A stretch of 59,030 nucleotides of DNA, taken from a virus. Of this stretch, positions 40,226 through 58,958 are shown in pieces (within the stretch, counting starts at the first letter, position 1; each line of letters starts with the position of its first letter). A program made the position numbers and the translations under genes. The notes beneath the pieces were generated by a model, which saw only the letters and a list, made by a program, of their open reading frames with translations, did no database searches and had not been told where the DNA came from. Location: positions 1 to 59,030 of IMG/VR virus record IMGVR_UViG_3300048611_000080. The stretch is one strand, 5' to 3'.

Positions 40226-40257
40226 TTAGTTCCCCAGTCCTTTGCGGTGCGGATTCG

Positions 40258-41803: not shown

Positions 41804-42580
41804 ATGCTCGCCGAGTCTATCTCTGTGACCCTTGATACCGTGGCGGATCCTGCTTTCCGCGCGCGTGCTTTCCATGAGTACAAGATCGTCACCCGTTATC
41901 TCGGACGGGTGGCTGACAACACCCGCATTCTCGACTTCGGATGTGGTGAAGGCATCGCCGCTGCGTCCTTCGCCTTGCGGCATCCCTCTGCGAAGGTTTT
42001 TGGAACCGACATTCAGACTGTGAACCCCGAACGGCTGCGCGCGAAACTGGAAAAACTCGTAGCGGCTCCATTGCCCGCCAACCTCGATCTCCGTCTCATT
42101 CCTCCATCCAGCCTGCCTGACGACATCCACGATCTCGACATCATCTACTCCTGGTCCGTGTTCGAGCACGTCCGCGCCGATCTCATCGTTCCGATCCTCA
42201 AGATGCTGCGCGAACGGCTGAGGCCAAGCGGCAAGTTCTTTCTCCAGATCGACCCGCTCTATTTCTCGCCCCGAGGCGCGCATCTCTACGGCGCCATCCC
42301 CGAGCCATGGTGTCATCTGCTTCACCAGACCGACGTGCTCCACGAGAAGCTGCTTGCCTCTTCGCTTCCAGACGCATCCAAGTCCCGGCTATGGGAGCAG
42401 TACCGAACACTTAACCGCGCGACCGCCGATGACATTACCGACGCCTGTGTCGAGGCGGGTTTCACAGTCGCGAAACGTGAGACGCTGAAGTCGGACCTTG
42501 AGTCGCCGGCGCCGCTTCTTCGCGCCTATTCGCGCGAGGCTCTGACCACCAGCGAGCTTCGGCTGCTGCTTGCACATTAG
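41804..42580 (+). CDS. Class I SAM-dependent methyltransferase (Methyltransf_11/23-like; no DNA-MTase motif seen)
   Basis: ILDFGCGEGIAA (motif I), FGTDI (motif II-like) and DIIYSWSVFEHV. Opposite strand to the flanking late genes. Its 3' end overlaps the tail-fibre stop by 4 nt. Confidence 0.75.
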   Translation: MLAESISVTLDTVADPAFRARAFHEYKIVTRYLGRVADNTRILDFGCGEGIAAASFALRHPSAKVFGTDIQTVNPERLRAKLEKLVAAPLPANLDLRLIPPSSLPDDIHDLDIIYSWSVFEHVRADLIVPILKMLRERLRPSGKFFLQIDPLYFSPRGAHLYGAIPEPWCHLLHQTDVLHEKLLASSLPDASKSRLWEQYRTLNRATADDITDACVEAGFTVAKRETLKSDLESPAPLLRAYSREALTTSELRLLLAH

Positions 42581-45435
42581 GACAGGACCAGCGGGCGGGC
42601 TGACTTGTAGGTGCCGCTCCACTCGAACCGGATCGGCGTGCCAACAACCATGTGCGTTCCCGCAATGACGGTCGTGGCGGTGTTTGGCTGCGCGAAATGA
42701 AACTGGCAGGTGGCGGCGTTTCCGTTCATCCTCAGGACAATTTCGGTTGTTCCTGCCGGGACGCTTGTCAGCCCCGCTGCCGCCCTGTTCATCACCGGAA
42801 TGTAGTCCGATTCATTCGCATCGCTGAACGCCGTGCGGGGAAAGCCGCTCAGGCGAAACTCACCAGAGCCTGAGCCGAGAGTCGTTATCCGAACCTGGAC
42901 CCTTGCCCGTACCCTGACGATACCAGGCTCAACCTCTTCCCAATCGCAATTTTGCGCGTCGATCTGCCAGGCATCCGCATCCACGGTGGAGAGGAACGGC
43001 GTAAGGTTGACCGATCCAGCCCGCGGCTTCGCTGGCATGGCATAAGAGTCGACATTAGTAAGCGTGATCCGCTCGACGCCGCCTGGCGGCGAGATGAGTT
43101 CATAGTCCTTGTAGGTGCTCCTGTTGACGCTCGCGGCCTCATAGATCGGCGTGTAAATGTTCTTGAACCGCGGTCCCTTGGCGACGTTGTTGCCGCCCGT
43201 GTGAGCGACTGAGTTGATCGTCGTATTTTCGGTGTAGATGCCGCGGTCGCCACTGTCGGCAGTTCCCACCTGCTCGATAAGTGGGCTTTCGATGACGCCG
43301 CCGCTTGCGCCCAAGAGCGCGATCGCTGAGTTGCGCGACGCATCGTTGGTGTACTGCGAAATATCGGTTGTTCCGCGGCGCCGGCCGAAGCCGATGATGC
43401 TGACGCCGGAGCCGATGCGGAACGGATATGCGCGGATGATAATCGGCGTCTGGTCGCTCATCTCAATGAGGATGTCGTCGATCGTCGACACGCGGGGCGG
43501 CTGCGTCGGCGTGCCGGCGTTGGCCATATGGATTCCGTCCGCACAGCTGATTATCGATCCGCCGCGGATCTGCACAATGCCCAAGTCACGCTTCGCGGTG
43601 ATGCCGACGCCGCAGTCATAGATCAGGTTGTTGAGAATGTCGCAAGCGCGCCCGTCATCTGCTGGATCATAGCCGGCAGTCGATTGACCGCTGGCGTAAA
43701 TCCCGGCGTCGCAGAATCGTCCGATGCGGTTTCCAGCCGCTTCGAACTGATCGATATCGACATAGGAAATGCCGGAGTCGCCGCTCCAATACGCCTCGGC
43801 GACATAGGAGAGCCCGGACACATCAAAGGTATCATCGTCGATCCTGGTTACGGTGTGGGGACCGGTGGAATACGCGGCCGACCCCCAGATGCGGATCGTT
43901 TCTCCGGTGTCGATACCGCCGCCACCAGCCGCACAAAGCTGGGAGCAGGTGAACCTGGCGTCACCCGATCCGTTGTCCGCGACGTTTGTGATCGGAAATC
44001 CGGACGCGCTGAAATCGGCCGGCTGCGCATAGGCCATCCGACCCGCTCCGCCGTGAAGGTGAGCGCCCTTAACGCTCCACCGCCGCGCGCGAGTCACGCC
44101 AAGCGCGGTGTTGGACGTTGTGTTCCAGGCGAAGGTCCCGCCAGAGACGTCGACCTCGCCACCGCGCCATTTGACGTCATAGGTATTACCTGGCCCAAGA
44201 AAATCGAACAGTTTGTCGGTTGAGGGCGCGTAGTATCCGAACGCGACGCCAGGCTGACATGCGACGTTGATGTGTCCGACGGTCGGATTGTAAGAAAGCG
44301 GCGACAACAGGTATTGTTGACCAGCGGTCTCAGGCGCCTCGAACACGCTGCGCTTGCCGGTCTCCATGCCGGCCTTGATGAACTCCAGAATGCGGTCGCG
44401 GTTGTCGCGGCCTAGCTTGACGCCGAATAGACTGGACTCCATGTCCGGGCGCCGCGTCAAAATGCGGTTGATGTAGATGGTCGAGCCATCGCGGAGCCAT
44501 TTTAGCCGCTCGCCGGCCTGCGCGACCTGATCGTAGCCGGTCTCCGTTACAAGGTTCGCGCCTTCCTCGAAGGTGATCTCGTCGCCGGCGTCGATCTCGA
44601 GCTCGCCAGACGACCCATCCGGGAACGCGCTGGCATCAATAGACGTGACCGTATCCGAGGTCCCGCTTTCGGCCTGGAGCGTGTGGGCGGATTTAGTGGC
44701 CGTCGCCACGCCCGACACGATGGGCAGGTTGGTGATCGCAACGCCGTTGGGAATGATTCCACCGCCCAGCCCGTCAGCCACCGTCTGAACATCGCCGATA
44801 TTGTCCGCGACGGTCTCGATGTCCTCCAGCGCGTCGAAAACTCCGACGACTTCGGCGTCTATGGCGGCGACCTGCTCGATGGCCTCGGCAATGCCCGCAA
44901 CGGTTGTCAGGTCAGGCTCATCGGAATGGTCGAACGAACCATCGGAATTGCGGATCAGGAACGCAGCGCCGGTAGTCGGCGGGGACGGGAATGCCGCGTT
45001 GGCCGTGGCGTCGGCGAACTGCAGCGGAACGGTCCGATCGAGCCGCGCCTTCAGTTCCTGCTGAAACTCGCCGACCTTGTCGAACCTGGACTCGACGCTC
45101 TCCGCATTGAACGACCCGCCGGTGGTGAGGTCGAGGTCTTGCGTATACGCTTGCACCCGCTCGGCGAGGATGCGCTGGGTCGATGTCAGAACCGCCTGCG
45201 AGCCGGTGAGTGTGAATGTCCGTGCGTCCTGCGTACCGCCTACCGAGTAGTCGGTATCCAGGACGAGGACCGTTCCGGCGTCGTTGTCCGTTGTAGCCGT
45301 CGCATAGCGGGTCAGCTTGACATGAGACGTCGAGACGAAACGGATCGGGACCGAGTTCTCGTCATTCAGCGAATACGGTCCCAAGGTGCCGTTGCCGAGG
45401 ATGCTAACTCGTGGAATTTGGACGACGAGAGTCAT
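42577..45435 (-). CDS. Tail fibre / tailspike protein
   Basis: 952 aa, last gene of the T7-order virion module (gp17 position). The Gly/Ser/Thr/Asn-rich central part is compatible with a beta-helix spike. Confidence 0.68.
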   Translation of the reverse strand: MTLVVQIPRVSILGNGTLGPYSLNDENSVPIRFVSTSHVKLTRYATATTDNDAGTVLVLDTDYSVGGTQDARTFTLTGSQAVLTSTQRILAERVQAYTQDLDLTTGGSFNAESVESRFDKVGEFQQELKARLDRTVPLQFADATANAAFPSPPTTGAAFLIRNSDGSFDHSDEPDLTTVAGIAEAIEQVAAIDAEVVGVFDALEDIETVADNIGDVQTVADGLGGGIIPNGVAITNLPIVSGVATATKSAHTLQAESGTSDTVTSIDASAFPDGSSGELEIDAGDEITFEEGANLVTETGYDQVAQAGERLKWLRDGSTIYINRILTRRPDMESSLFGVKLGRDNRDRILEFIKAGMETGKRSVFEAPETAGQQYLLSPLSYNPTVGHINVACQPGVAFGYYAPSTDKLFDFLGPGNTYDVKWRGGEVDVSGGTFAWNTTSNTALGVTRARRWSVKGAHLHGGAGRMAYAQPADFSASGFPITNVADNGSGDARFTCSQLCAAGGGGIDTGETIRIWGSAAYSTGPHTVTRIDDDTFDVSGLSYVAEAYWSGDSGISYVDIDQFEAAGNRIGRFCDAGIYASGQSTAGYDPADDGRACDILNNLIYDCGVGITAKRDLGIVQIRGGSIISCADGIHMANAGTPTQPPRVSTIDDILIEMSDQTPIIIRAYPFRIGSGVSIIGFGRRRGTTDISQYTNDASRNSAIALLGASGGVIESPLIEQVGTADSGDRGIYTENTTINSVAHTGGNNVAKGPRFKNIYTPIYEAASVNRSTYKDYELISPPGGVERITLTNVDSYAMPAKPRAGSVNLTPFLSTVDADAWQIDAQNCDWEEVEPGIVRVRARVQVRITTLGSGSGEFRLSGFPRTAFSDANESDYIPVMNRAAAGLTSVPAGTTEIVLRMNGNAATCQFHFAQPNTATTVIAGTHMVVGTPIRFEWSGTYKSARPLVLS

Positions 45436-45494
45436 GAAACTTTCCTTCCCGTCTGCTTGCGCAGCGGGTTGCGGTTCGGTTCAGAAGATCGGGG

Positions 45495-48400
45495 TCAGTT
45501 CGCGGGCGGAGGCCCGAAGAAGATCGCGGCGGGATTGTCGGTCTCGCCGTTCCACAGGGCTTGGGCGCCAAGAACGGATGCCTGCACCTGTCCTGCGGGG
45601 TAGTGGAAGACCATGCCGGCCGCTCGGTTGGCCGGCTTCCAGAAGCTCTGATCGAAGTCGGCTTCAGCGACCGCCGAGCCCATCTGGTTCAACTCACTGA
45701 AGATCGCGAGGCCCGCCGGACCCTTGTAACCATAGCTGTCATCGCCGCGCGCCGAACCGGCGAACTGCGAGACGCCGACGAATGGACCAAAGAGGAACGC
45801 CACTTGCTCGCGCGCGTACCGCTCCGCCCACTCCTCAGGCTCGTCATCATCACCGATGCCGCGCGTGAGGAGGTCAAGGGTCATCTTGCCCGCAACGGGA
45901 ACCGCAGCGAGGATCATCAGGTCCAACGACAGCGCTGCGATCTGCCCAGCCGTTCGTGCATTCCTGACGCGCTGGACGCCGAGGTTATAGGTCGTGATCA
46001 TATAGCTCATGAAGTTGGTCAGGATGCGCAGAAGCGCCGCGTATTTGGTCCCGGCCCCCGATTGCATCGCCGCGAGCTGGTGAAGCTCCCCGCCGCCCTG
46101 TGCGTCCACCACCGCCTGATCCGCCATGGCGATGGCGTCGCCTTCCTCCGCTCCATAGTGCTGCGCTTTGAAATAAGCCCCGTACCAGGTCGGCATGTCG
46201 ACGCCGTAGAACTGAGTATTCGCCATCAGGGCGAAGCCGTTGCGCACCATCCAGCGGTGCGCCATGCGCAGGTGGCGGGGAATGAACGAAGGCGTCCACT
46301 TGTTCTTCACCGCATCTAGCAAAGACGCCATTTCCGGGCTCTGCGTCTGGCGCCGATGACGCATGAATTCCGAGCGTTCCATGATCCAATCGGCCGAGGA
46401 CTGAAGCGTTGCAGCATCCTTGCCCATGCGGGCGTAGCCCTTGGCGACCCATGGGCCGCCGACACGGACAACCGAGTTGGAAGCGCCGAGGACCTGCAAT
46501 GCCGCTGTCGATGCCTTCCACGCAAGGCCAACGACGGTGGCCCCATTCCTCAGATGAGCGAGAAGGCCGGAGGTTCCCTCCATCCCGAACTTGGCGGTCA
46601 CGAGCTGGCTGACGATGGTGTTGTAGATTTGCCGACCATGACGCCCGACAATCGCATCCTCGACCTCGCGTCGCTTAATGATCCTGCCGATGTCGAACAG
46701 GATTTCTTCGGTCGCGATCGAGCGGGCGACTTCGTCTAGGTGCTGAACGATGACATCCAGGGCGGAGAGACGAAGCGGCAGTGTGACTTTGCCCTTGACC
46801 CGCTCGCGCGTGTAGCCTTCACGTCTGCGCTGCCCGATATTGCCGGTCTGCGGCAGGGCGTCGGCCTCGATGGCCCGCTGGCCGGTTTTGGATGACAGCT
46901 TGGGATCGAACTTCAGAGGGTAATATCCGCCGGCATAGATGCCGAAGCGGGTCGCGATCTGAAGCGGCTGCTCTTTTGACATCGGCGCGCCATGGACGGA
47001 TTCATGCACGCGGTTTGCTTCCGGGAACCATGTGTCGAGGTAGTTCCATGTGCTCTGCACCCAGTCCCAATCGCGCTTGGAGAGCGTGTCGAGAACTTCC
47101 TGAACTTGCCCCTCGTTCCACCCATAGGCGTCCATGAGGCGCTTGCGGTTGACGGCATTGCCCCAGTTGAGGGCGATGGCGAGGCGGCCCTGTGTGGTCA
47201 GCGAGCGGCCGATTCCATTGAAGCGGCGGCGGTCACGATAGAAGCGTTCCTGCTCCGCCTGAGTGTAGGCGCCGAACAGCCCGATCACATCCTCGCCCAT
47301 CTGCTTGCGCAGGCTGGAGAGATGTGCAAATGCGGCGTTGAGCGGCTTCACGATGTAGCGCCAGAAGACCCCACCGTCCTTGCCGCCCGCGAACTGGTGC
47401 GCCAGGGAGTGCAGCGTCCGATGCATGGCGAAGTATTTCTGCACCGAGCCTTTGACGATCTCACCTGCCGTGTCCGTCTCGAGCGGTTCGGGCGGCTTCT
47501 GGTTCGGCTGATTGGTTTCGACCTCGGCGGCGATATCCTCCGCCGCCAGAGACAGCCGGCGGCGCTCGCCTTCCTTGATCAGCCGGTCCTTGAGCGTCGC
47601 CAGCCGCCAGATCATGTCGGCTTCCGCCCTGACGCTCTCCAGCTCTTCGACAGTGAGGCTCTTGTAGTTGCGGGCCTCTGCGCCTTCGGCCAGTGCGGCA
47701 AGCGCCTGTGAGCGTTCCAGCGCCTCTGCGGCGGCAACGCGCTGTTCCTCCGACGTCTTTGTCGGGTCCTGATAGGCGGCGAAAGGATCGATGCCGGCCA
47801 TCTGCGCCTGGATCCATTGGGCGCGGGACGCCCTGCGGCCTTCCTGCCGCTTGCTTTCCGGGCGGAGCATGTAGTCGTCGAGAAGCCCGTTCATCTGCGA
47901 GGCGTAATCTTCGCCTGCCGAGAATAGCCGCTGCTGCTTGGTCTTGGACCCGTAGGCGATCAGATGCTTGCGGGTCTTCTCAGCATCCTCCGCCATCTTC
48001 CGACCTTCGCGGAACATGTGAAGGTTGACGAGCTGATAGCGCTTGAACTGCGCCGCCTCGTCGAACTTGCCCTTTCCGGCAGCCTCCATCGCTTTCCTGC
48101 CCCAGCGCTGTTCGAGGATCAGCCACTGGTTGTAGTTCAGAACCTCACGCACCTGCTTGGTGCGGAGGTTTTCCTGCGCCTGCTGCTTGGCGAGATTGCC
48201 GGCGAATTGCTGGCCTGCCGCCTTGGCGAGAGCTTCGAGCTCGATCTCGAAATGCCGCTGCTGTACCTCGTTGCGGGCGAACTTCTCCGCTTCCTGCATG
48301 ATGGTCCCGTCCTTGAACGGGTCGCCGTGTCTGGCGATCATGCGCTGTTCGGTGAGCTGCTTGATGAGGGCGTTGCGGCGCGGACCCTCTCTCAGGCCCT

Positions 48401-51400
48401 GCAGGAGAGCGTTGCCGTCCGGCATGTCGAAGAACGGGGCCGCCTCATCGGGGCCGATGGCGTTTTCCGTCTGGCCCGTGAGTGCTGTCTCGATCTTGGC
48501 CCGCAGAACAGCGCCGTCTTTCTCGGCTATGTCGATGCCTTGACCGTCGAACCACTGTTCCCATGTCTCGGCGTCGCGGATTTTCTGGACCGTGTCGATG
48601 TCAGTCCGGCTATAGAGTGGCCCCTGCCCGCCGACGTCATTGCCAAGCGCGTCGAGAAAGTCGTTGTCGTCCGGCGGGCTTTCGCCGCTGAAATATCCTT
48701 CCTCCCAAGCCGCAACCGCTGCATCATGAATACTGTAGGAGCGAACGCGCTTGTTGTCTTTGGTCTCGTCGGCCAGCAAACCGGGGGCAGTCTTGCGCTC
48801 CCCGATCATCGACTTGATCTCGCCGCCCGGATCGCGGATGCCGCTATAGGCTATCTTGTCGTTGCCTGAGCCGATGTAGCGCCTGCGGGCGAGGAACTGC
48901 CAGAGCGAGCGAGGCTTCTTCTGGTTGAGCGTCCGGCGCACGTCTCGCGCGATCTCTAGGAACTGGTCCGCATCCGTCGCCGCCGCACTGTAGGCGCGGA
49001 CCTCGGGAGGAAGCTTGGCTAGCGCGTCCTCGCCATATTGCTCGCGGACGGCATTGAGGTCGAGGCGCATGGGCGGGAGGTTAGGGGGTGGCACGGTGCG
49101 GCCCGAACTGCCAGTCTGCGCCAGCATTTCCTCATCGTTCGTCCACGTGCTTCCGAGTTCCTGATCGGCTTCGGGCTGGCGAACCATGGCGCCTTCGACG
49201 AACACGTTGATGTGGCCTGACCACGGATCGCGGACACCGACATAGCCTTCGGCTTTCAGCCTCGCGAACAGCGCTTTGGCCTGCGGCGTGTCGTCCGGCT
49301 TCTCGTAGTTCTCAAGTCCTCGGGACGTTTCCTCATCCAGATCGAACAGCTTGCCGTTGATCCTCCAAGCATCGATCTTACCTGTCTGTCCGCCCCACTC
49401 GGCGCCGATCCACGGCTCCTCTGCGGAGTACAGACCGTTGCCGAGACGCCCCTTTTCCACCTCGCCAAGAACGTCTTCGCCGCTGCCGCGATAGACAAGC
49501 AGGCCGCTACTGACTTCGCCCGATGCTGGGGCCTTTATGTCGGCTTCCGTGCCTGATGTGGCATACCACGCATGGACCCCGGCCTTGTCCATGTCGGCCA
49601 GAGTCGGCCACTTCTTCGGGTTGTAGACGCCGTGCTCAAGCTTGATGTCGCCGAGAGCGAACACGACGCGCGCGAGGTCATGGTGGTAGCCATCGTTCCC
49701 GCCTGGAAAGGCGATGATCCGGCCAGCATCGGTCCTGAACAGCAGGATGATCGGGACGACATTGTCATCCATCATCCGCTGGCGCAGGGCTGCCAGACTC
49801 TCGTCCGTGGCGTTCGGCTCGAAATATTTGGTGTTGTCTAGGAAGCCGTCAGCCTGCAACAGAGCGGACACGGCTTCAGCTTCGATAGCTGCCGCGTCGA
49901 TGAAGTCGCCCTGCGTTGACCTCCAACCGCCGCCTGACAGCCACTGGTAGGCGCGCTGTTCCGGACGCTCGTCGACTTCGGATGTGACCTCGGCGCGGAC
50001 CTGACGTTCTTCCGATCGCCACCAGGCTTTCTGGTTACGCTCGTAATCCTCCATGAGCCGGGCCATGAGGTCGGCTTCGGCCCGCTCTCTGGCGGCTAGC
50101 AGACGCGCCTTGGTGCGCTCGAATGCCTTCTCGGTGATGACGCCTTTGTCCAGCAGCGCCTTCGCCATCTGCTCGCTGTCACGCGCTGAGGTCTGGGTCG
50201 CGGCCTTGATGGCTTCCTCGGTTGCAAGCATGCGGTCGAATACGGCGCGGATTTCGTCGTTGAGGCGGACGCGGCGCCCGATCTGGGTTATGCTCTTATA
50301 GATGCGGAGGAGCCATTGCTTCAGCGTGGCAAAGACCGAGCGGAGACTGGTCGATGGGGCCTTGCCTTCGCGAAGATAGGCCTCGAATGTCTCGGCGAAG
50401 GCTTCGTGGACGTCGCGTCCCTCTTCCGTGACCCGGCCCTGCGCATCGAACATCGCCGTCCAGTTTGGCGACTTGCCCTTCCATTCGAGGATGGCGGCTA
50501 GCTGTTCCTGCACGAACGGGTGAGGCGTCTCGGTTTGCGCCATCTTCCACAGCGTATCAAGATACCAGTGAGAGGCTTCGTGGACGAAGGTGGAGAGATT
50601 GGAGGATTCGAACAGGCGGATGACAGAGCGGTCGGCGCGGGGCGTGAATGAACCGCGCATGTCGCCTTGGGCGAACGCCATCTTCGAGCGCGCCGCCTCG
50701 ACCCGGTCGGCATACTTCGACCGCATCGCCCTGATCTGGTTCTTGGCCTTGGCCGGATCGCGATCCGGGAACATGACCTGCGCGATGTCGGCAACGTCGG
50801 CGCCGCGCGCCAGCATGCGGATCACGCCCTCAGTCTCAGGCGCTTGCGGTCTCCCGCCGACCAGCTTTTCGGATGGGAACCCCTTCTTCTCCGCCCGGCC
50901 AAGGTAGACCGACACAGCGGTCTCGGTGACCTTGCCCTCCTCTCCGCCCATGCGGACGGCAATCTCATCGTTTGTTAGACCTTCGCTGGCGGCCTTCCAC
51001 GCCTCAAATTCGTTTTCGCTCAAGACACTGGACGCACGTGTCAGGGTTTCGTCATCGATTGGTGCGGGCGTCCGTCTGGTTTGTTGCGGAAGAGCGTCGG
51101 CGTCTTCCTCGCCGGTCAGCGCCGCGACGACATCGAACCCCATCTCTTTCCACAACGCTTCCGGGTCCTGCCCCGTCCGCTCCGCCAGCGTCACCACCAT
51201 CTCGCCTGCAATGGCTGCCTGCGTGTTGGCGGTCTCGGTGTTGAACAGCTTGGTGTTGGCTACCTGCTCGCGTATGGTTTCGCGAACGCGATCAGCGGAG
51301 TCGGCGAAGGTCTGTTCGGTCGTGGCCGAGGTTTCCCGCGCCTTCTGCTCCTCCTCGAACACGGCTTTCATGGCCTCGTGTTCCTTGGCCGTGAAGTCGT

Positions 51401-53285
51401 CAGCGCGGAGGCGCATGTTCGGGGCAAGGGCGGCGTGCAGGGTTTCCCCTGATATGCCGATCTCTTTCTTTGCGGTTCCGAGGACTGCGGCGTAGTTGCC
51501 GGCAGGGATCACCACGTCATCACCCGACTGGATCGCCGCGACCATCTCGGCAGGATCGATGCGGAACGCCTGGGAGAGCTGTTCGGGGGTCAGGTCGTTG
51601 GCCTGCGCGAACTCGTTGATCGCCTCGGACGACACGCGCACGCTCTCCAGCGGGCCATCCTTGGTCACCGCTGCAACGGCTTCCCGGTATTTCTCAGGCA
51701 ACCGTGTGAGGAGCTTGGAGTCCTTTGCTCCCTGCGCCATGGCTTCGAAGGTGCGCTCCAGATCTTCGGAGCGTCGTTGCTGGGCGTTCTGCTCGAATTG
51801 CCGCGCCAGGGTGTCGACGCCCTGCGCCAGGGTCGTTTGCGCGCCGGACTGGACAACGGTGGCGACCGCCGTTTGCAGCGCCGCCGATGGCCGTTCGGCC
51901 AGGAACTCCGCCAGCGTCTTCTCCGGATTTAGGCTCGCCCATGTCGAGGCATCCTGAAGCAGTGTCGCCGCCTGCTCGCTTGCCCCTTCGGCGATGAGGT
52001 TGTTGCGGAGGGTCGTGAGGAACCCGGTCTTATTCGCGATGTCGCCGAACAGCTGCGACATCGGAATTTTCTCGGTGACGTATTCGATGGCGCCCTGAGT
52101 GACTGCATATTCCGTCGCCTCGTAGACGCTCAGCCCCTGTTCGCGGGCCTCGACATAAGACGGGCCTGTCGTGGCAATCGTCGCAGTCCCGATCGCCGGC
52201 AGCGGCGTCTTTGTAATCGCCGAGACGACAAGGCCTGGAGACTGGACCAGAAGAGACTGGACGCCGGAATAGACGCCGGCCTCGATGTCGTTCATCCCCG
52301 TAGGCGTCAGGCGCTCGCGCTCCCGCTTTGCCCCCAGCGCCAGCTGACCCAATGCACGCGAGGTCTGCGGCAGCAGATCAGCTTCATCGCGCGGCTTCTG
52401 CGGCAGGCGCCCGCTCTCGATGAACGCTCCCCGCTGGGCCTGCGTCATCTTTTCGCCGGTAATCGACATCAGCGCAGGCGATGACGGGCTGCGGAGATAG
52501 TCATCGATGAAGTCGGCGATCATCTGGCCCGTGCCGGCAAAGCCCTCGCCCAGTGCGGCTGGCGCCGATTGAGCGCCGGCCCCGATCAGCTTTCCGGCCC
52601 GCTCCCACCATTCAAGATTGTCGAGATCGTCGTGCGCGACATCGAAGTTCGCTCGGTCGCGCGCCCAATCACGCAGGAGCGGGGCGGATTCATAGACGCG
52701 GTCGATCTCGCGGGCCTGATCTGCGGCCCGGAAGCTTTCCCGGTTCTGCTCGACCTCGATCCGGTTGACGCCGGACTTGTCTGCAAGGTCGATATCCTGC
52801 GCCGCCTGTTCGGGCGTGGTCGGGCTGTCGAGCAGGCGGGAGCGGGTTTCGGACGCCAGCCGGGCTGCGTCGCGCTCGGCCTTGTAGGCGCGCAGATCGG
52901 TAATGTCGGCTTCGCTGAGCCCCAAACTGGGCGGTCCGCCGATTCCATCCTCACCGGACCCATATTGAGGTTCGCCCTCGATGTCGGCTCGCGTCAGGGC
53001 CGGGGACCGGCCTAAAGATGTATAGCCGCGTATCGGATCGTCTTCATCCGGCTCGATCACGGGTGCGGATGTCGAGCCTAGATATTCTCCCTGCGAACGC
53101 TTTGCCGGCCAGCCGGGGAGCGGATTGTCGCCGATCAGCGGATCGACCTTCGGCCTGGTGACCAAGGGCGTTTCGATGGCGCGCTTCAGCCTCGCCTCGT
53201 TCTCCTCGTTGACGCGGGCCATGGCGACTTCTTCGGCGAAGTCGGCGATGGCTCGACTTGCCGGAGAGCGAGGAACCGTAGCCAT
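45495..53285 (-). CDS. Giant (2596-aa) virion-associated polyvalent/internal ejection protein (T7 gp16 position)
   Basis: Single uninterrupted ORF. Contains an HExxH zincin motif (FVHEASHWY, nt 50568-50582) with a downstream HEAFAETFEAY, two LuxR/sigma-region-4-like HTH segments (aa 755-800 and 821-858, nt about 50712-51023), coiled-coil stretches and hydrophobic segments near the C-terminus. Confidence 0.8.
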   Translation of the reverse strand: MATVPRSPASRAIADFAEEVAMARVNEENEARLKRAIETPLVTRPKVDPLIGDNPLPGWPAKRSQGEYLGSTSAPVIEPDEDDPIRGYTSLGRSPALTRADIEGEPQYGSGEDGIGGPPSLGLSEADITDLRAYKAERDAARLASETRSRLLDSPTTPEQAAQDIDLADKSGVNRIEVEQNRESFRAADQAREIDRVYESAPLLRDWARDRANFDVAHDDLDNLEWWERAGKLIGAGAQSAPAALGEGFAGTGQMIADFIDDYLRSPSSPALMSITGEKMTQAQRGAFIESGRLPQKPRDEADLLPQTSRALGQLALGAKRERERLTPTGMNDIEAGVYSGVQSLLVQSPGLVVSAITKTPLPAIGTATIATTGPSYVEAREQGLSVYEATEYAVTQGAIEYVTEKIPMSQLFGDIANKTGFLTTLRNNLIAEGASEQAATLLQDASTWASLNPEKTLAEFLAERPSAALQTAVATVVQSGAQTTLAQGVDTLARQFEQNAQQRRSEDLERTFEAMAQGAKDSKLLTRLPEKYREAVAAVTKDGPLESVRVSSEAINEFAQANDLTPEQLSQAFRIDPAEMVAAIQSGDDVVIPAGNYAAVLGTAKKEIGISGETLHAALAPNMRLRADDFTAKEHEAMKAVFEEEQKARETSATTEQTFADSADRVRETIREQVANTKLFNTETANTQAAIAGEMVVTLAERTGQDPEALWKEMGFDVVAALTGEEDADALPQQTRRTPAPIDDETLTRASSVLSENEFEAWKAASEGLTNDEIAVRMGGEEGKVTETAVSVYLGRAEKKGFPSEKLVGGRPQAPETEGVIRMLARGADVADIAQVMFPDRDPAKAKNQIRAMRSKYADRVEAARSKMAFAQGDMRGSFTPRADRSVIRLFESSNLSTFVHEASHWYLDTLWKMAQTETPHPFVQEQLAAILEWKGKSPNWTAMFDAQGRVTEEGRDVHEAFAETFEAYLREGKAPSTSLRSVFATLKQWLLRIYKSITQIGRRVRLNDEIRAVFDRMLATEEAIKAATQTSARDSEQMAKALLDKGVITEKAFERTKARLLAARERAEADLMARLMEDYERNQKAWWRSEERQVRAEVTSEVDERPEQRAYQWLSGGGWRSTQGDFIDAAAIEAEAVSALLQADGFLDNTKYFEPNATDESLAALRQRMMDDNVVPIILLFRTDAGRIIAFPGGNDGYHHDLARVVFALGDIKLEHGVYNPKKWPTLADMDKAGVHAWYATSGTEADIKAPASGEVSSGLLVYRGSGEDVLGEVEKGRLGNGLYSAEEPWIGAEWGGQTGKIDAWRINGKLFDLDEETSRGLENYEKPDDTPQAKALFARLKAEGYVGVRDPWSGHINVFVEGAMVRQPEADQELGSTWTNDEEMLAQTGSSGRTVPPPNLPPMRLDLNAVREQYGEDALAKLPPEVRAYSAAATDADQFLEIARDVRRTLNQKKPRSLWQFLARRRYIGSGNDKIAYSGIRDPGGEIKSMIGERKTAPGLLADETKDNKRVRSYSIHDAAVAAWEEGYFSGESPPDDNDFLDALGNDVGGQGPLYSRTDIDTVQKIRDAETWEQWFDGQGIDIAEKDGAVLRAKIETALTGQTENAIGPDEAAPFFDMPDGNALLQGLREGPRRNALIKQLTEQRMIARHGDPFKDGTIMQEAEKFARNEVQQRHFEIELEALAKAAGQQFAGNLAKQQAQENLRTKQVREVLNYNQWLILEQRWGRKAMEAAGKGKFDEAAQFKRYQLVNLHMFREGRKMAEDAEKTRKHLIAYGSKTKQQRLFSAGEDYASQMNGLLDDYMLRPESKRQEGRRASRAQWIQAQMAGIDPFAAYQDPTKTSEEQRVAAAEALERSQALAALAEGAEARNYKSLTVEELESVRAEADMIWRLATLKDRLIKEGERRRLSLAAEDIAAEVETNQPNQKPPEPLETDTAGEIVKGSVQKYFAMHRTLHSLAHQFAGGKDGGVFWRYIVKPLNAAFAHLSSLRKQMGEDVIGLFGAYTQAEQERFYRDRRRFNGIGRSLTTQGRLAIALNWGNAVNRKRLMDAYGWNEGQVQEVLDTLSKRDWDWVQSTWNYLDTWFPEANRVHESVHGAPMSKEQPLQIATRFGIYAGGYYPLKFDPKLSSKTGQRAIEADALPQTGNIGQRRREGYTRERVKGKVTLPLRLSALDVIVQHLDEVARSIATEEILFDIGRIIKRREVEDAIVGRHGRQIYNTIVSQLVTAKFGMEGTSGLLAHLRNGATVVGLAWKASTAALQVLGASNSVVRVGGPWVAKGYARMGKDAATLQSSADWIMERSEFMRHRRQTQSPEMASLLDAVKNKWTPSFIPRHLRMAHRWMVRNGFALMANTQFYGVDMPTWYGAYFKAQHYGAEEGDAIAMADQAVVDAQGGGELHQLAAMQSGAGTKYAALLRILTNFMSYMITTYNLGVQRVRNARTAGQIAALSLDLMILAAVPVAGKMTLDLLTRGIGDDDEPEEWAERYAREQVAFLFGPFVGVSQFAGSARGDDSYGYKGPAGLAIFSELNQMGSAVAEADFDQSFWKPANRAAGMVFHYPAGQVQASVLGAQALWNGETDNPAAIFFGPPPAN

Positions 53286-54983
53286 CTACTGCGCCGCCTC
53301 GATCTGCCGGTAGATCGCCATGGTTTCAGCCGGCGTCGGCTTGTTTCCTGTGTTGCGGTAGAACGTGTCCTCGATGCGCGCTATGATATCCGGGTCCAGT
53401 TGCCCGGCCCCCACCATGCCCTCCATGCCGGTCCCAATAAGATCGTTCACGGCGAGGCCGAACTGTCCCGGCGCTGCAAAGCCCCGACTGCCCATGGCGC
53501 GAGCGATGAAGTCCCGCGTCTCGTCTTTGGTGATGGGCTTGCCGGTCGCCGCCTGGTCCTTGGCGTAGCCGCGCAGCAGGCCAAGCACCTCCGTGGCCTC
53601 CTTTTTCTGATTCTGCGTTCCGATCTTCCAGTCCTCGGGCGCAACGCGCTTCAGCTCCTGGGTCAGTTCCGTCATCGACGCATCGACTGGCTGCGATACC
53701 TGGCCCTGTATCCGGCGCTTGGTGATCTCGTCACGAACCGCCTGCTGGTCTTCGAGCGTGAGATTGTCGAACTTCCGCCTGGCGTCAGTCGACCACTTGT
53801 CGTAACCGGCGACGAACCGCTCCGGCAGCATGGTCTCAAGCTCGTTGCGGAAATTGGTCGATTGGATTTTCCAGAACTGCTTTTCGGTATAGCCCATCGT
53901 GCCTTCAGCATCGCGGGCGTTCTCGAATGCACGGATGGAGCCCAGCCGGTCGGGGTCGATTTCCGCACGCAAGGACGGCGGTGCATTTCCGATCTTGCCA
54001 CCCCCTTCGACATGAGCCCACATCGCCTCTTCCAGTCCGTCTTGATGTTCGTTTTCCGCCTGATCCGCCATGAGGCGCAGCCGGTTGCCGCGCTCCTCGA
54101 CTTGCGTTCGGAGCCTGGCGTCTTCGATCTTGCCGGTTTCCTTGACGAACCTGCCGTAATCGCCTTCAGCCTTGGCCCAGAGATCATCGGTCATCGTGAC
54201 CACACGGGCATCGAACTTGGCGTCCTGCAGACCCTTCTCGATCGCCTGACGCTTGGCCGGGTCGAGTTCCTTGTAGTTGGCCTTGAACTGGGCTTCGGCC
54301 TCGGCCACGCGACCGTCACGGACCAACGCATCGACATTGGCCGTGACCCGCGCCGTCTTGTCGTCGACAATCCACTTGTCGAGTTGGGCAAGCTGTAGGG
54401 CTGCGTCGTCCTTTTCCAGCACGCCGCTCTGCGCCTGCCTACCGATCAGATTGCGCTGGGCGTTCACTGACTCAACGAACGTCTTTTCCTCGATCGCCAT
54501 ATCCCCGATTGCGGCTTGCAGCGCAGCGGATTCCTTAATGATCCCGGCGCGCATATCGGTAAGCTGACGCTTGCGGGTTAGGTCTCTCGCCTTCAGGACT
54601 CCATTCGACTGCCATTGCGTCTTGGCGCGTTCGGTCCACATCGCCTTAGCGCCCTGCGGAACGATCTCGGCATTCTTCGAGATGACCGCATCCGAGGCTT
54701 CCTTGAACCGGGTCTCGATGGTTGCGGCGTCGATGGTCCCGTCGGTTTCAAGCTTCCGGTATTCCCGGTCGATGTCCTCGCGGGTTTTCCTGTCGGCCTC
54801 TGTGACCTTCCTGTCGATATCGGCCTTTTCGATCCGTCTGGCGACCTCGCCTAAGGCGCTAGCAGCTTGTGCAGCCGCCTCCCATGCTCCGCTTGAGCGG
54901 TCTTCCACCACGGGAACATTGACGACGCGGCGGGTCTGCTGGGCAGGGCCAGCCAAATCAACCGCTCTTGGAATTCTAGCCAT
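53286..54983 (-). CDS. Internal virion protein (T7 gp15 position)
   Basis: 565 aa, highly charged and helical. Abuts the giant ORF start. Confidence 0.55.
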   Translation of the reverse strand: MARIPRAVDLAGPAQQTRRVVNVPVVEDRSSGAWEAAAQAASALGEVARRIEKADIDRKVTEADRKTREDIDREYRKLETDGTIDAATIETRFKEASDAVISKNAEIVPQGAKAMWTERAKTQWQSNGVLKARDLTRKRQLTDMRAGIIKESAALQAAIGDMAIEEKTFVESVNAQRNLIGRQAQSGVLEKDDAALQLAQLDKWIVDDKTARVTANVDALVRDGRVAEAEAQFKANYKELDPAKRQAIEKGLQDAKFDARVVTMTDDLWAKAEGDYGRFVKETGKIEDARLRTQVEERGNRLRLMADQAENEHQDGLEEAMWAHVEGGGKIGNAPPSLRAEIDPDRLGSIRAFENARDAEGTMGYTEKQFWKIQSTNFRNELETMLPERFVAGYDKWSTDARRKFDNLTLEDQQAVRDEITKRRIQGQVSQPVDASMTELTQELKRVAPEDWKIGTQNQKKEATEVLGLLRGYAKDQAATGKPITKDETRDFIARAMGSRGFAAPGQFGLAVNDLIGTGMEGMVGAGQLDPDIIARIEDTFYRNTGNKPTPAETMAIYRQIEAAQ

Positions 54984-54986
54984 GCA

Positions 54987-55493
54987 TCATCCGCCGAAGG
55001 TGGCTTTCCACGACGACGAGCCCACGGCGCTTCCGATGCTGGACAGCAGCGAGGCCGTCGCCCCATAGCTCGCGGCCTTGCCCATGGCCTGAAAAGACCG
55101 CGCCTGTTGCGCGCCTGTGGTCCGCGTGACGGCGGCGGCGTAGCGGTCCTGCCGTGCCGAATCCTCTGCCTCGGCCATTGTCAGTAGGCTTTCCATGGAC
55201 GCTTCACGGATGGTCTCGTCGGTGATCGCCAGAACGGTGGCGTCGGTGGTGTCCCCGCCGCCGGCCGCGGCCGCCGCCCGCTGCGACGACATGATCTCCT
55301 TGGCCCGCTTGGCGATGCGCTCGGAATTGTAGGTCCCGACCGCCAACCCCTGGCGCGCACGGGTTTCGAGCTGGCGGGCCTCGGCTTCAGCCGCCATCTG
55401 GGCGCGCTCCGCCGATATCTTGTAGGCCTGCTCTTCCTTTTTGCTGGCCTTGTACTGGGTGACGGCCCCGAAAATGTCGAAAATAAATGACAT
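54987..55493 (-). CDS. Internal virion protein (T7 gp14 position)
   Basis: 168 aa, Ala-rich and helical, with a Gly/Ser-rich C-terminus. Confidence 0.5.
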   Translation of the reverse strand: MSFIFDIFGAVTQYKASKKEEQAYKISAERAQMAAEAEARQLETRARQGLAVGTYNSERIAKRAKEIMSSQRAAAAAGGGDTTDATVLAITDETIREASMESLLTMAEAEDSARQDRYAAAVTRTTGAQQARSFQAMGKAASYGATASLLSSIGSAVGSSSWKATFGG

Positions 55494-55572
55494 TACGACC
55501 TTTCACGGACCGGGGCGGCGTCAGCGCTTACCGACCTCTCGTCGCGAGGAATTGTTGGCATTTGTTATGGAG

Positions 55573-56046
55573 CTAAGACCGCTTGGGAGAACGCCCGGTC
55601 AGCCAGCCCCATCTCCTTCCTGCGCGGATCGCCATGATTGCATAGGCGCCCACTCCGAATTCCTTCGCTAAGACCTTGGTTGGCCTGTCGTCTGCGTCGA
55701 TTGCCAAGACTTGGTCCATGGTCAGCTTGGCGCACGGATGCCTACCATGCCTTAGGTCGGTTCCGTGTTCATGCATGTCAGCCATGTTCTCGGCGCGCGT
55801 AGCCCACTTTAGATGCAGCGGATGCATACACCCTGCGTGACCCTGCCCGCACTTATGCGCCGCCTGCGCTCGTGGAAACGGGGGCGGTCCATTGACAAGC
55901 TCACACATGTATCTGTGGGCGAGCACCAACTTGCCGCCGCGTCGAATCTGGCCGTACCCCATGTTGTTGCGGGTGAACGGCCAGATCAGACACTCTTCGG
56001 AACTGTAGTTGATGTGATCCCGAATAAACCGCTCGCACTTGCCCAC
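55573..56046 (-). CDS. Free-standing HNH homing endonuclease (HNH_3-like)
   Basis: CLIWPFTRNNMGYGQIRRGGKLVLAHRYMCELVNG...AHKCGQGHAGCMHPLHLKWATRAENMADM. Confidence 0.78.
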   Translation of the reverse strand: MGKCERFIRDHINYSSEECLIWPFTRNNMGYGQIRRGGKLVLAHRYMCELVNGPPPFPRAQAAHKCGQGHAGCMHPLHLKWATRAENMADMHEHGTDLRHGRHPCAKLTMDQVLAIDADDRPTKVLAKEFGVGAYAIMAIRAGRRWGWLTGRSPKRS

Positions 56047-56088
56047 GTTTCGACTCCGCTTTACTGGAGCCTCACGATGGATTACGTT

Positions 56089-56117: not shown

Positions 56118-56126
56118 GTAGCGATA

Positions 56127-56297: not shown

Positions 56298-56652
56298 TTA
56301 GGACAAGTATCCACTCCGCCTCAGAAGGGTCCACGGGGCGGAACCCGAGACGCTTGAGCCATTCCCTCGCCCGCGGAATTGTGTCGTCCAGCTTCGCCCG
56401 GATTTCGGTCGCTCCTGCCCGCCCTACGGCGTGGAGCAGGTCCAGCGACTTCCGGTGGATGCCGTGCGGAAACTCTCCCCTGCCCCCGAAGGACGCCCAC
56501 CAGCGGTTATCATCCCCGACAAAGCAGCAGCCGATCGCCACCAGATCGCTATCCCGCCGGCAGGCGAACCCCACCATGCGGGACGGATCGGGATAGACCT
56601 CGACCCCCCATTCCTCGAAATGCTCGGGGCCTAGGTCGTCATACCGGATCAT
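56233..56652 (-). CDS. GNAT-like acetyltransferase-fold protein (tentative)
   Basis: Start MIRYDD in an ATGA overlap with the tubular-B-like stop. ...WWASFGGRGEFPHGIHRKSLDLLHAVGRAGATEIRAKLDDTIPRAREWLKRLGFRPV resembles the GNAT beta4-alpha3-beta5-alpha4 core. The last roughly 30 codons have low third-position GC and the final 65 nt (56233-56297) overlap the RHH gene. Confidence 0.42.
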   Translation of the reverse strand: MIRYDDLGPEHFEEWGVEVYPDPSRMVGFACRRDSDLVAIGCCFVGDDNRWWASFGGRGEFPHGIHRKSLDLLHAVGRAGATEIRAKLDDTIPRAREWLKRLGFRPVDPSEAEWILVLTNAALACRADGRASWPSRSGP

Positions 56653-58958
56653 CCGGACTTTTCGTTGGTTTCCAGATGCGGAACCATGCCGAGTAAGGTT
56701 GCCGGACCCGCCGTGGGCATCAGTATGCATACCCTCGGGTCCTTGCCGGATGCGCCCTCGAAGGGCAGGTTCTTGTCGTCGGTGATCTCCACCATGGCGG
56801 CGTCGTAGCTGGCCGGATCGGCCCCGCGGAGCACGCTCATGTTCGTAAAATCGCGTCCCCATTTGAGCGCGCCCGGCGCCGTCCGGTAGGGCAGAAGCCC
56901 GATCCGGGTTATCTTCCGGTCCTGGGTAAGCGCCGTTCCCGTGTTGGCCCCGCCCATGACGCGAGGAGATTTGTATTTCCCATCATAGAGCAGCCCGACA
57001 ACGGCATAGGTGGCGGCGTAGGTCAGTGTGATCGCCCCGCCCGAGACCGTGAACGGACCCTGCTGATAGCCGCCGGTCCAGGCATGGACGGTCTCGCCCT
57101 CGAGATGGTCGAGACCGGTGATGCTGGTGGTCGAGACGCCGGAATACTCGACCGCATCCCTCAACCGCCAGACATCCTCCATGTTCTCCCAGGCTTCGGG
57201 AGCGAGCTTTTCCAGATGGCGAACGGTCGAGCCGTCAATCGTCCGGCGGACGACGAAGTAAATCTGATCCTCGACGTCTCCGGGAACGCAGCAGACGCTC
57301 TCGTAGAAGGCCCCCTCGTCGATCAGCCGGCACCAGGCGACGACGCCCTCGGTCGGCTCGAACAGGAGCACCGCCATGTGTCCGTCATCGCAGGGTATCC
57401 ATATCCTTGGCTCCGGATTGTACTGGACCGCCCCCTCCAGAGCGCCATCGTCGGTTCCCTCATCCCCGAAGATGAACCGGTGCAGCCGGGTCAGCTCGTT
57501 GAGTTCGTATCTCTCCCCGGTAAGCTCCATGCGGAACAGCTTGCGGCGGCTACGGTCGATGAACCCGACATCATCATCGATGACAAACCCATCCGCCGTG
57601 GTCGAGGACCCGCGCCGCGATCTCGGCCTGGATTTAGCCGTGGTCGGCGTGATCACATCGTCGAGCGCGTTGGTCCCGATCTCGGCCTCGCGCGCATCCA
57701 TCCCGATCATCAGCCGGGATATGCCCTTCATCCAGACAGCCGACCCCCAGCCGCCGGTGACCCTCCGGGTAAACGCCTTGGCGTCGTCGGCTCCGATCTC
57801 GAAGCCTTCGAAATCATCCGATTCCGAGGCCCAGAATCGGTCGTCGCGCCCAAGCCACAGCCTGCCATCGGCTAGAGCGGGGGCGGCAGGCCAGCCGGCG
57901 ACGTCCGACCAGGCGCCGAACGCCCAGTCTGTGGTCGCCGTCGTCTTACCGACCGGGCGCAGGATGTCGATCGTCACAGAGTTGTCGGCATTGACCTGGT
58001 AGATACGAGCGATGCCTTCGGTCGATCCGTTGGCGTGGGTCAGCGAGACGGTTGCGGTTCCACTCGTCCATGCCGTGGCGAGAACGCGGTAATAGATGAT
58101 CTGGTTGTCGAGATCGTCGTCATAAGTGGTCGAGGTCGTGGTGGCGTGGGTCTGGTAGGTGACCCAGTTGAGTTCGTTGCCGACGCTGCGCTGGAGCACC
58201 AGGGTTCCGCTGAACGTGCCCGTGATGTCGAGCGTGAACTTGCGATTGTCGCCGGTTCCGGTGACCCGGACGTTTTCGGTATGCTCGTCGATCGCATCGA
58301 TGGACGCCGTTATGAACTGGCCCTGGTGAAGTAGCCTGATCAGGGCGCCGGCATGGGCGGCGCGGAAGACCGGGGCCGAAGCTGAGAGCGTGGCCGAGCC
58401 GGTGCGGGAGTTGGCTGTCATCGTCGTTGATGTGACGTTGAGATTGGCGAAGGGTCCGCTTTCCGGCTGGTACTGTCGCAGGCTCCACGATTTGGCGCCC
58501 CTGCGCTCCAATACGCGGGTCTGCACGCCCTTGGTCGCAATCCAGGCGACATCGAAGCTCTGCTCAAACCGCAGGGTCCTGAGATGCGTTTCCTGCCATG
58601 GCGTCGTGAGCGTCAGGTCTCCCCCGGTGACAGCCTGGAAGCCCGAGAGTTCAGCCGCGCCTAAATCCGCATCGACATAGCCGATGTCCGGCAGGCGGAA
58701 CTCGACATAGTAGGGCGAGACCCCGGGCGTGATGGTGATAAGATGCTCGCCGGGGTAGAGCGTGATATCGGTGAATATCTCCTGTCCGCCCGCGCTGGTT
58801 CCCGCCCGCATCTTGAGCGGGCGCCGGTCGGTCGAGAACTGGAACGTGACCTCGTCGTCCGGCGCTGCCGTCGTGATCTCCGAGCGCGCCACCGCCTCGC
58901 TGCCGGCGGAGGTAAAGAACAGGACCGTGTTGTTCGCCGGAACATAGACGATGCTCAC
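56649..58958 (-). CDS. Tail tubular protein B / nozzle (T7 gp12-like)
   Basis: 769 aa (T7 gp12 is 794 aa). Position follows the gp11-like gene. The GTG start lies inside the terminal overlap. Confidence 0.6.
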   Translation of the reverse strand: MSIVYVPANNTVLFFTSAGSEAVARSEITTAAPDDEVTFQFSTDRRPLKMRAGTSAGGQEIFTDITLYPGEHLITITPGVSPYYVEFRLPDIGYVDADLGAAELSGFQAVTGGDLTLTTPWQETHLRTLRFEQSFDVAWIATKGVQTRVLERRGAKSWSLRQYQPESGPFANLNVTSTTMTANSRTGSATLSASAPVFRAAHAGALIRLLHQGQFITASIDAIDEHTENVRVTGTGDNRKFTLDITGTFSGTLVLQRSVGNELNWVTYQTHATTTSTTYDDDLDNQIIYYRVLATAWTSGTATVSLTHANGSTEGIARIYQVNADNSVTIDILRPVGKTTATTDWAFGAWSDVAGWPAAPALADGRLWLGRDDRFWASESDDFEGFEIGADDAKAFTRRVTGGWGSAVWMKGISRLMIGMDAREAEIGTNALDDVITPTTAKSRPRSRRGSSTTADGFVIDDDVGFIDRSRRKLFRMELTGERYELNELTRLHRFIFGDEGTDDGALEGAVQYNPEPRIWIPCDDGHMAVLLFEPTEGVVAWCRLIDEGAFYESVCCVPGDVEDQIYFVVRRTIDGSTVRHLEKLAPEAWENMEDVWRLRDAVEYSGVSTTSITGLDHLEGETVHAWTGGYQQGPFTVSGGAITLTYAATYAVVGLLYDGKYKSPRVMGGANTGTALTQDRKITRIGLLPYRTAPGALKWGRDFTNMSVLRGADPASYDAAMVEITDDKNLPFEGASGKDPRVCILMPTAGPATLLGMVPHLETNEKSG

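Follow-up and report, generated by a model that had tools for sequence, protein, structure and literature searches.

Which role can be assigned to a 2596-residue protein that is encoded at the position of T7 gene 16 in the genome of a virus? The window, which is the whole stretch of DNA analysed, comprises 59,030 nucleotides of viral DNA (IMG/VR record IMGVR_UViG_3300048611_000080, positions 1 to 59,030), and the gene in question, hereafter the giant, is an open reading frame (ORF) at 45495..53285 on the minus strand, whose ATG start directly abuts the stop codon of the upstream gene (53286..54983). In the original prediction, made from the letters alone, the giant was described as an internal-core or ejection protein with a zincin-type HExxH motif and two LuxR/sigma-like helix-turn-helix (HTH) segments. 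The 2596-residue ORF and every quoted motif are present, the zincin motif lies where it had been placed (about 50380-50582), and the length is indeed about twice that of T7 gp16 (1318 residues). A protein identical to the giant is already on record (P0001). We consider, with a probability of about 0.6, that the giant is a gp16-class internal virion protein (IVP), of the type termed IVP-D, in a temperate podophage that has epsilon15 and BPP-1 among its relatives, and that it would be packed, ejected at infection and cut by its own peptidase, and would carry DNA-binding cargo. We infer packaging, ejection, self-processing and DNA binding by analogy, the first three from the biology of T7, N4, and P22 together with the polyvalent-protein hypothesis.

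The class assignment can be addressed through the homologues of the giant and the genes around them. The protein matches phrog_9880 with an E-value of 7.5e-289, although this PHROG is labelled 'unknown function'. Homologues found by tblastn are 25-31% identical, with the best matches reaching E 2e-118, and belong to the Caulobacter phages Jess A, SR18, and relatives (genus Rauchvirus), to Bordetella phage BPP-1, and to Vibrio, Xanthomonas (CP2), Pseudomonas (AF), Cobetia, Octadecabacter, Nostoc, and Microcystis podophages. Bbp10 of BPP-1 is matched over residues 191-2591 of the giant (E 4e-91). The gene order of BPP-1 (bbp13, bbp12, bbp11, bbp10, bbp9, mtd), that of phage AF (IVP-A, IVP-B, structural lysozyme, 2213-residue giant, holins, tail spike), that of Jess A, and that of the contig of a close relative, P0005, are the same as in the window. 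Bbp10 has been listed as the IVP-D (T7 gp16) homologue of the epsilon15 group in Table 2 of Hardies et al. (2016, PMC4819975), who also describe IVPs as hosts of domains destined for the cytoplasm. Because of this published assignment, the gp16 slot before the tail fibre, as originally proposed for the giant, reflects homology and not position alone. The absence of a lytic transglycosylase motif has likewise been borne out, since Pfam detects neither a lysozyme nor an SLT domain in the giant at E<=1. A fold search of the BFVD database returned fragments of the giant's own family and nothing else.

The only significant Pfam domain in the giant is LPD22 (PF18834), at residues 154-239 (52569..52826, minus strand, as are all features of the giant given below), with an E-value of 1e-15 and 58.2 bits compared to a cut-off of 28.6. 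LPD22 belongs to the 'large polyvalent protein associated domains' defined by Iyer et al. (2017). An index search gave 74 proteins including the query, with lengths of 1572-4535 residues, and 63 of the 74 have LPD22 on record. The additional Pfam domains differ from one homologue to another and include ART-PolyVal (PF18760), PF18814, LPD23, LPD3, GGDEF (PF00990), RadC (PF04002), GNAT (PF00583), SLT (PF01464), and others. The connection with polyvalent proteins that had been drawn from the letters alone therefore gains support both from LPD22 and from the cargo of the homologues. The giant itself combines several functionally unrelated parts, namely LPD22, an HExxH block, two HTH domains, and two further modules, and is encoded among virion genes, with internal-virion and tail-tube genes on one side and the tail fibre on the other. 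Judged by its domains and relatives, the giant is a real member of a very large known family built on the polyvalent protein plan.

Mapping of BLAST segments resolves this plan into three conserved blocks, A (residues ~150-730), B (~875-1120), and C (~1600-2596, starting at ~1390 in the closest clade), which are separated by two slots. Block A (51096..52838), as delimited by the BLAST map against 73 homologues and by the family alignment A2, consists of LPD22, in which D219/D220 are conserved or invariant, and a helical region with an invariant R528. Slot 1, between blocks A and B, has a length of 30-2184 residues in the family (median 642) and 157 residues in the giant, and slot 2, between blocks B and C, has a length of 1-2028 residues (median 74) and 489 residues, anchor to anchor, in the giant. 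In the closest relatives (P0002-P0005), block C is 64-71% identical whereas the contents of the slots differ, suggesting that cargo is exchanged between otherwise similar phages.

Block B contains the zincin-like motif, and its core spans residues 875-1000 (50286..50663). Both quoted peptides fall within the core, FVHEASHWY at residues 900-908 (nucleotides 50562-50588) and HEAFAETFEAY at residues 960-970 (nucleotides 50376-50408). From composition, 0.033 HExxH motifs would be expected per protein. The motif is not a product of chance, for H902, E903, H906, and E961 do not vary among 26-27 aligned homologues, although the identity between these sequences is only 19-35%. In an alignment of block B itself (26 sequences, 27-67% identical to the query), ten positions are invariant; these are the four residues above, A964, G974, P977, and Y996 of the core, and R1018 and A1021 of the helical extension (residues 1001-1122, 49920..50285), with E968 being near-invariant. 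The first of two AlphaFold2 (AF2) models, with a mean predicted local distance difference test (pLDDT) score of 86.5 for block B, shows a β-hairpin, the HExxH helix (897-916), a short helix, a helix carrying E961 and E968 (954-973), and then the very long helices of the extension. The motif and the order of elements in this model are the signature of a gluzincin and of the polyvalent 'MPTase' (metallopeptidase) hub domain, for which a role in self-processing has been proposed (Iyer et al. 2017, PMC5512222), and a putative peptidase could thus be assigned to block B. A zincin peptidase identity is plausible but unconfirmed. The best match of block B to a profile of a solved structure is Spartan/SprT (E 0.2), centred on the HExxH motif, and there was no significant match to a known zincin among PDB profiles, Pfam, and the top 50 Foldseek rows of each search. 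The zincin claim of the original prediction therefore stands as to the motif, including the invariant E961, but the zincin fold is not confirmed by these three sources. A SHOCT-like helix at residues 1039-1063 (50097-50171; E 1.4e-4, below the Pfam cut-off) was also observed within the long helices of block B, in the close clade only.

The distribution of block B was examined by an exhaustive search, which found it in 11,968 representative clusters at 50% identity, 6,675 of them at E<=1e-30, nearly all from proteins of 1-3.3 thousand residues. The 150 best of these 11,968 matches were listed, and distant bridging members fall outside this listing. Pfam gives no match for block B at E<=5, MPTase-PolyVal (PF18818) included, and in single scans of 26 block B members no Pfam family was found and phrog_9880 was the only PHROG. 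With about 12,000 clusters and its invariant residues, block B appears to be a common, uncatalogued core part rather than a peculiarity of this phage, and it is, across the aligned members, the most widely conserved block of the family. This runs counter to the original view of the HExxH motif as a special effector acquired by this phage. Some of the block B representatives are short (605-970 residues, some of them maybe fragments), and P0075 has four matched stretches, indicating that block B is not confined to full-length giants and can be present more than once. In the relative P0004, slot 1 contains, at residues ~828-990, LPD23 followed by another HExxH motif (LLHEAQHAIQEEE...) besides that of block B, and hence two zincin-like motifs are present in one polypeptide.

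Slot 1 of the giant is filled by the HTH pair, which among the retrieved homologues is found only in P0002, P0005, and partly P0004. The segments originally quoted as HTH-like cover residues 755-802 and 821-858, and the domains can now be delimited as unit 1 (residues 745-802, 50880..51053) and unit 2 (residues 816-873, 50667..50840). For unit 1, Pfam reports GerE with an E-value of 0.066 and 13.3 bits, compared to a gathering score of 23.5, and Sigma70_r4_2 with an E-value of 0.079, both at residues 754-801. When a three-sequence profile was compared with the PDB, eight of the ten best matches were LuxR/NarL-type domains (E 0.24-0.95), with unit 1 matched by VraR-type domains (E 0.24-0.95) and unit 2 by the NarL C-terminal domain 1je8 and by 8u3b (E 0.7-0.9). 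The second AF2 model has pLDDT values of mostly 77-96 across both units despite a shallow alignment, and mostly 92-95 in unit 2; unit 1 adopts a compact four-helix fold of the LuxR/FixJ type with helices at 745-754, 757-767, 772-780, and 788-800, and unit 2 is LuxR-like and helical. In a Foldseek search with a 661-residue query, whose matches are given for the query as a whole and not by unit, VpsT, FixJ, StyR, and EvgA are the matches listed with probabilities of 0.66-0.92 and root-mean-square deviations (rmsd) of 1.3-5.4 Å. The match to VpsT has an rmsd of 1.3 Å over 52 columns at 27% identity, and that to RcsB a probability of 0.33 and an rmsd of 7.4 Å. From converging sub-threshold sequence matches, a confident model, and LuxR/FixJ fold matches, it is likely that slot 1 consists of two tandem LuxR/FixJ-type HTH domains, with putative DNA binding, which agrees with the type of HTH originally named. 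Profile searches and structure prediction, which had been suggested as a check, thus favour HTH folds, whereas they provide no fold match for a peptidase. Word-index searches in which the HTH region or the slot 2 cargo served as the query found nothing, and these are uninformative because known relatives were missed too.

Slot 2 holds two modules. Module 1 (residues 1153-1252, 49530..49829) is modelled, with fair confidence, as a small α/β domain, is common to P0002 and P0003 only, and has invariant HHD and NATD motifs. Its pLDDT values are mostly 65-93, with two blocks of ten residues above 85, and it has no match in Pfam, PDB, or Foldseek. Module 2 (residues 1253-1390, 49116..49529) is common to P0003 only and has no match in Pfam or PDB; its model is unreliable (pLDDT ~28-64). 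The start of module 2, VYRGS...GLYSAEEP, is reminiscent of ART-PolyVal as found in relatives, but it has VYRG where VYHG would stand, and a histidine at the position of the expected catalytic glutamate. An assignment of residues 1253-1390 to ART-PolyVal (PF18760) was rejected, as Pfam gave no match and a home-made hidden Markov model built from 21 ART domains of the family gave 0.9 bits. Module 2 could be a degenerate ADP-ribosyltransferase-like domain. After the two modules, from residue ~1390, the sequence is conserved in the closest relatives only.

Block C (residues 1391-2596, 45495..49115; family-wide from ~1600) is helical and is presumed to be the ejectosome or membrane part of the giant. 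Its invariant residues are G1972, N2046, G2120, Y2121, P2123, D2127, R2162, S2305, R2311, and P2563. The strongest hydrophobic segment of the protein, which resembles a transmembrane segment, lies at residues 2446-2464 (45894..45950; Kyte-Doolittle 19-residue mean of 1.77), and weaker ones lie at residues 2248-2266 and 2494-2512. A second HExxH motif in block C, HESVH at residues 2094-2098 (47007-47021), is not conserved outside the closest relatives and is probably due to chance.

Short linkers mark the junctions between blocks and slots. An ALPQ linker (residues 731-734, 51084..51095) lies between block A and slot 1, and an MLAQ linker (residues 1387-1390, 49116-49127), with which module 2 ends, lies between slot 2 and block C; both were singled out by motif analysis as candidate processing sites. 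Looser sites of the giant are AFAQ at residue ~870 and ALLQ at residue ~1144. In the closest proteins, such tetrapeptides are found again at all four junctions (A/slot 1, slot 1/B, B/slot 2, and slot 2/C), whereas in the wider family a 'Q-G-x-R-G-x-F' stretch is found before block B instead. Either the adjacent HExxH domain or the prohead protease could cut at these candidate sites.

A mechanism could be proposed on the basis of these features. A few copies of the giant would be packed in the capsid core with other internal proteins and would be expelled through the tail at infection. The helical, partly hydrophobic block C may help to build or anchor a trans-envelope conduit, as T7 gp16 does, while the N-terminal two-thirds of the giant would reach the cytoplasm. 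The putative metallopeptidase of block B may cut at the inter-module linkers, with candidate sites at residues 731 and 1387 and looser ones at ~870 and ~1144, and the cargo would thereby be released. Ahead of any phage gene expression, its LuxR-type domains could then bind DNA, be it that of the incoming phage or that of host promoters. A bolder and rather improbable extension is that Bbp10-like giants in general are self-processing polyproteins, whose HExxH...E domain would cut at short linker motifs on either side of exchangeable cargo cassettes, and that in the lineage of this phage the cargo set free is a tandem LuxR-type transcription factor, which would direct host RNA polymerase onto, or off, particular promoters ahead of all phage gene expression. 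If true, this would be a protein-level analogue, in a temperate podophage, of the RNA polymerase that N4 injects.

Several results weigh against the reading of the giant as a packed, ejected, and self-processed gp16-class protein with DNA-binding cargo. A comparison by hhalign of the family alignment A2 with epsilon15 gp17 gave an E-value of 0.033 and a probability of 1.5% over 45 columns, and this sole and weak overlap falls on the C-terminal hydrophobic segment at residues 2446-2464; PDB profile searches with the whole protein and with the full-length family alignment gave nothing. The link to IVP-D therefore rests on synteny and on the published assignment of Bbp10. In the literature that could be read, evidence for virion incorporation, ejection, or cleavage was not found for the giant or any homologue, and the cryo-electron microscopy (cryo-EM) paper on BPP-1 identified only two capsid proteins. 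For block B, the peptidase models of Pfam, NCBIfam, and PHROG gave no match, zincins are absent from the top 50 rows of each Foldseek search, long helices dominating that of block B alone, and the two strands before the HExxH helix (878-882 and 887-891), present in model 1, are missing from model 2, where pLDDT is low. Every HTH sequence match is singly below significance, the Foldseek E-values exceed 1, and a genome scan for recurring operator-like sequences that the HTH domains might recognise gave nothing convincing. In favour of the linkers, the tetrapeptide [A/S/M]L[A/P]Q, usually preceded by acidic residues, is observed 17 times compared to 2.2 expected in the five closest proteins, a number that none of 2000 shuffles reaches, but the counts include homologous positions and are thus not independent. 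Outside the close clade, the enrichment of the motif is mild (39 observed and 29 expected).

Alternative explanations have to be considered for the HExxH block in particular. It might be a true metallopeptidase that acts as an effector and cleaves host proteins of defence, envelope, or transcription, and host-protein cleavage is indeed among the possible roles of MPTase domains in polyvalent proteins (Iyer et al., PMC5512222). The invariance of the catalytic-type residues would suit such an enzyme. Block B is, however, fixed between the cargo slots in nearly every member, whatever the cargo, and the effector domains of the family are its variable parts; the fixed position suits a housekeeping role in a polyprotein better than a host-specific weapon, so that the effector explanation appears rather unlikely. 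Block B is better read, from its conservation, as a constant processing module in the role proposed by Iyer et al. than as a host-directed weapon of this phage. The zincin likeness could also be superficial, if the HExxH...E block has no catalytic function and serves as a structural part of the capsid core or ejectosome, possibly stabilised by metal. In line with this, none of the searches gave a significant peptidase match by profile or fold, and block B does run into very long helices typical of ejection proteins. Moreover, the virion RNA polymerase (vRNAP) of N4 is packaged unprocessed, and its MPTase-containing region is needed for encapsidation. Structure alone could hardly account for four gluzincin-site residues being invariant across sequences of 19-35% identity, and we therefore give this explanation little credence as well.

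The role of the HTH pair is open to a similar discussion, for it might handle the phage's own DNA, either in the capsid core, as the anchor of a genome end, or at the cytoplasmic exit of the ejectosome, as a clamp on the leading end. There are precedents for such a role in T7 gp16-C, whose DNA binding is not sequence-specific and which acts as a clamp on the entering genome (PMC8954989), and in cyanophage A4's pre-ejectosome, which anchors a DNA circle (PMC12002296); host-like operator repeats were not found in the genome, which also fits. Core DNA handling would nevertheless be expected to be conserved, whereas the pair is present only in the closest relatives, in a slot that holds ART, GGDEF, or RadC elsewhere, and LuxR-type domains are normally sequence-specific transcription factors. 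A role in handling the phage's own DNA is thus possible but doubtful. It is very improbable, in contrast, that the giant is a lysis or muralytic protein, as database labels such as 'lysis protein' and 'lysin containing a beta/gamma crystallin motif' on the homologues of Jess A, RapA, OANV1, Nostoc, and Microcystis phages would have it. One distant homologue, P0072, does carry an SLT domain, but the search of the giant itself at E<=1 gave no match to lysozyme, SLT, or peptidoglycan peptidase domains, Phage_lysozyme is found in another protein of the genome, and the label can be traced back to a short pattern match in Bbp10.

The genome around the giant is that of a complete temperate phage. An exact overlap of 127 nucleotides joins the ends of the window (1-127 and 58904-59030), indicating a circular assembly of 58,903 unique base pairs and hence a complete genome, and the presence of terminase, portal, integrase, and lysozyme genes, taken together with circularity, indicates a temperate phage. 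The structural operon wraps across the ends of the window. DNA similarity to sequenced phages or isolates, searched with 19 kb of the window (40000-59030), revealed no close relative. On the minus strand, the genes follow in the order of a 769-residue tail-tube-B-like protein, a 209-residue ORF, an HNH endonuclease, a 168-residue protein, a 565-residue protein, the giant, and a 952-residue protein. The 769-residue tail protein (56649..58958) matches phrog_376 and occupies the tubular-tail-B position by synteny, and the 168-residue protein (54987..55493) matches phrog_418 as an internal virion protein. The 565-residue protein (53286..54983), in the IVP-C position, is weakly similar to Bbp11 of BPP-1 and shorter; the alignment is offset by ~160 residues, which suggests that it is without ~160 N-terminal residues relative to Bbp11, and no muralytic Pfam domain was detected in it. 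The 952-residue protein downstream of the giant (42577..45435, minus strand) is tail fibre- or spike-like, with tail PHROG matches at its N-terminus and a weak Beta_helix match.

Some other observations were made in the same genome. The HNH endonuclease ORF (55573-56046, minus strand; phrog_59 and others, E 1e-19) lies among the tail-tube and internal-virion genes and is probably a homing endonuclease insertion. The sole lysozyme domain found (Phage_lysozyme, E 2e-22) forms the N-terminus of a 405-residue protein (37207-38424, minus strand) with an extension of ~250 residues. A gene for an S-adenosylmethionine-dependent methyltransferase (41804-42580, plus strand) is located directly downstream of the gene for the tail fibre, on the other strand. 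Two direct repeats of 44 nucleotides, 73% identical (35404-35447 and 35663-35706, plus strand), each end in GAGATG or GGATG and look like a duplicated upstream or ribosome-binding-site element of two small plus-strand genes. In the head module, an imperfect duplication of 97 nucleotides, 70% identical (5929-6025 and 6091-6187), lies within a 377-residue ORF (5230-6363) and thus gives an internal repeat in its protein.

Injected polyvalent effectors and the gp16-class assignment of IVP-D are already published, homologues are abundant, and nothing is overturned by the analysis of the giant. What is new is modest and comprises cargo in the form of a LuxR-type HTH pair, a scaffold with two explicit slots, the large number of block B clusters together with the lack of a catalogue entry for this block, and the linker motif. 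No part of the podophage virion is understood less well than its ejection proteins, and polyvalent proteins are almost wholly computational predictions. Against this background, the gp16-class scaffold of epsilon15/BPP-1-like phages could be described as a carrier with two defined cargo slots, whose cargo can include transcription-factor-type DNA-binding domains, and its HExxH module is very widespread and uncatalogued, with ~12,000 clusters at 50% identity and no Pfam model. The cleavage sites, catalytic residues, and DNA-binding fragment are testable predictions for cultured relatives such as BPP-1, the Caulobacter Rauchvirus phages, and AF.

Compared to known systems, the giant is closest to the Bbp10 family (Jess A gp39, AF gp16, and the proteins of CP2, Vibrio phages, and cyanophages), with which it is homologous over blocks A, B, and C, shares the invariant HExxH...E, and has the same gene position after IVP-A/B/C-like genes and before the tail fibre. 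However, it is 400-550 residues longer than Bbp10, AF gp16, and Jess A gp39, its genome has 58.9 kb compared to 42-48 kb in Bbp10-type phages, and its slot contents are found in very few of the homologues retrieved, the LuxR pair being restricted to P0002 and P0005 (in part also P0004) and the slot 2 modules to P0002 and P0003. Like the polyvalent proteins of Iyer, Burroughs, Anand, de Souza, and Aravind (2017), for which co-delivery with DNA and self-processing have been proposed, it is a giant multi-domain protein in a virion-gene context, with LPD22, a zincin-like HExxH hub, and relatives that carry ART-PolyVal, GGDEF, RadC, and GNAT. In that work HTH domains were described as infrequent, and the A-B-C scaffold with two slots has been worked out here. 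The HTH units share with LuxR/FixJ/NarL (GerE) domains the pattern LSExE...W...G.TN.EIA...V...V and the four-helix model, but unit 1 has a five-residue turn insertion, there is no receiver or ligand domain, and the units are in tandem and embedded in a structural polyprotein. T7 gp16 and epsilon15 gp17 resemble the giant in position, large helical build, and a C-terminal hydrophobic segment, whereas the giant has about twice the length of T7 gp16 and no N-terminal transglycosylase, which is a T7-specific rather than universal trait. The cyanophage A4 proteins gp26 and gp27 (PDB 9K2V) are likewise very large helical ejection proteins encoded between other ejection-protein genes and the tail fibre; their capsid-core location and DNA binding have been shown by cryo-EM, and homology to them was rejected as hhalign gave E-values of 0.34-0.65, i.e., no detectable similarity. 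The nearest functional precedent for a transcription-related activity delivered with DNA is N4 gp50, the vRNAP, a giant ejected protein in which an activity destined for the cytoplasm and an MPTase-like HExxH are located inside an IVP-D homologue; in the giant, the RNA polymerase module is absent and the cargo would instead be a pair of small DNA-binding-type domains.

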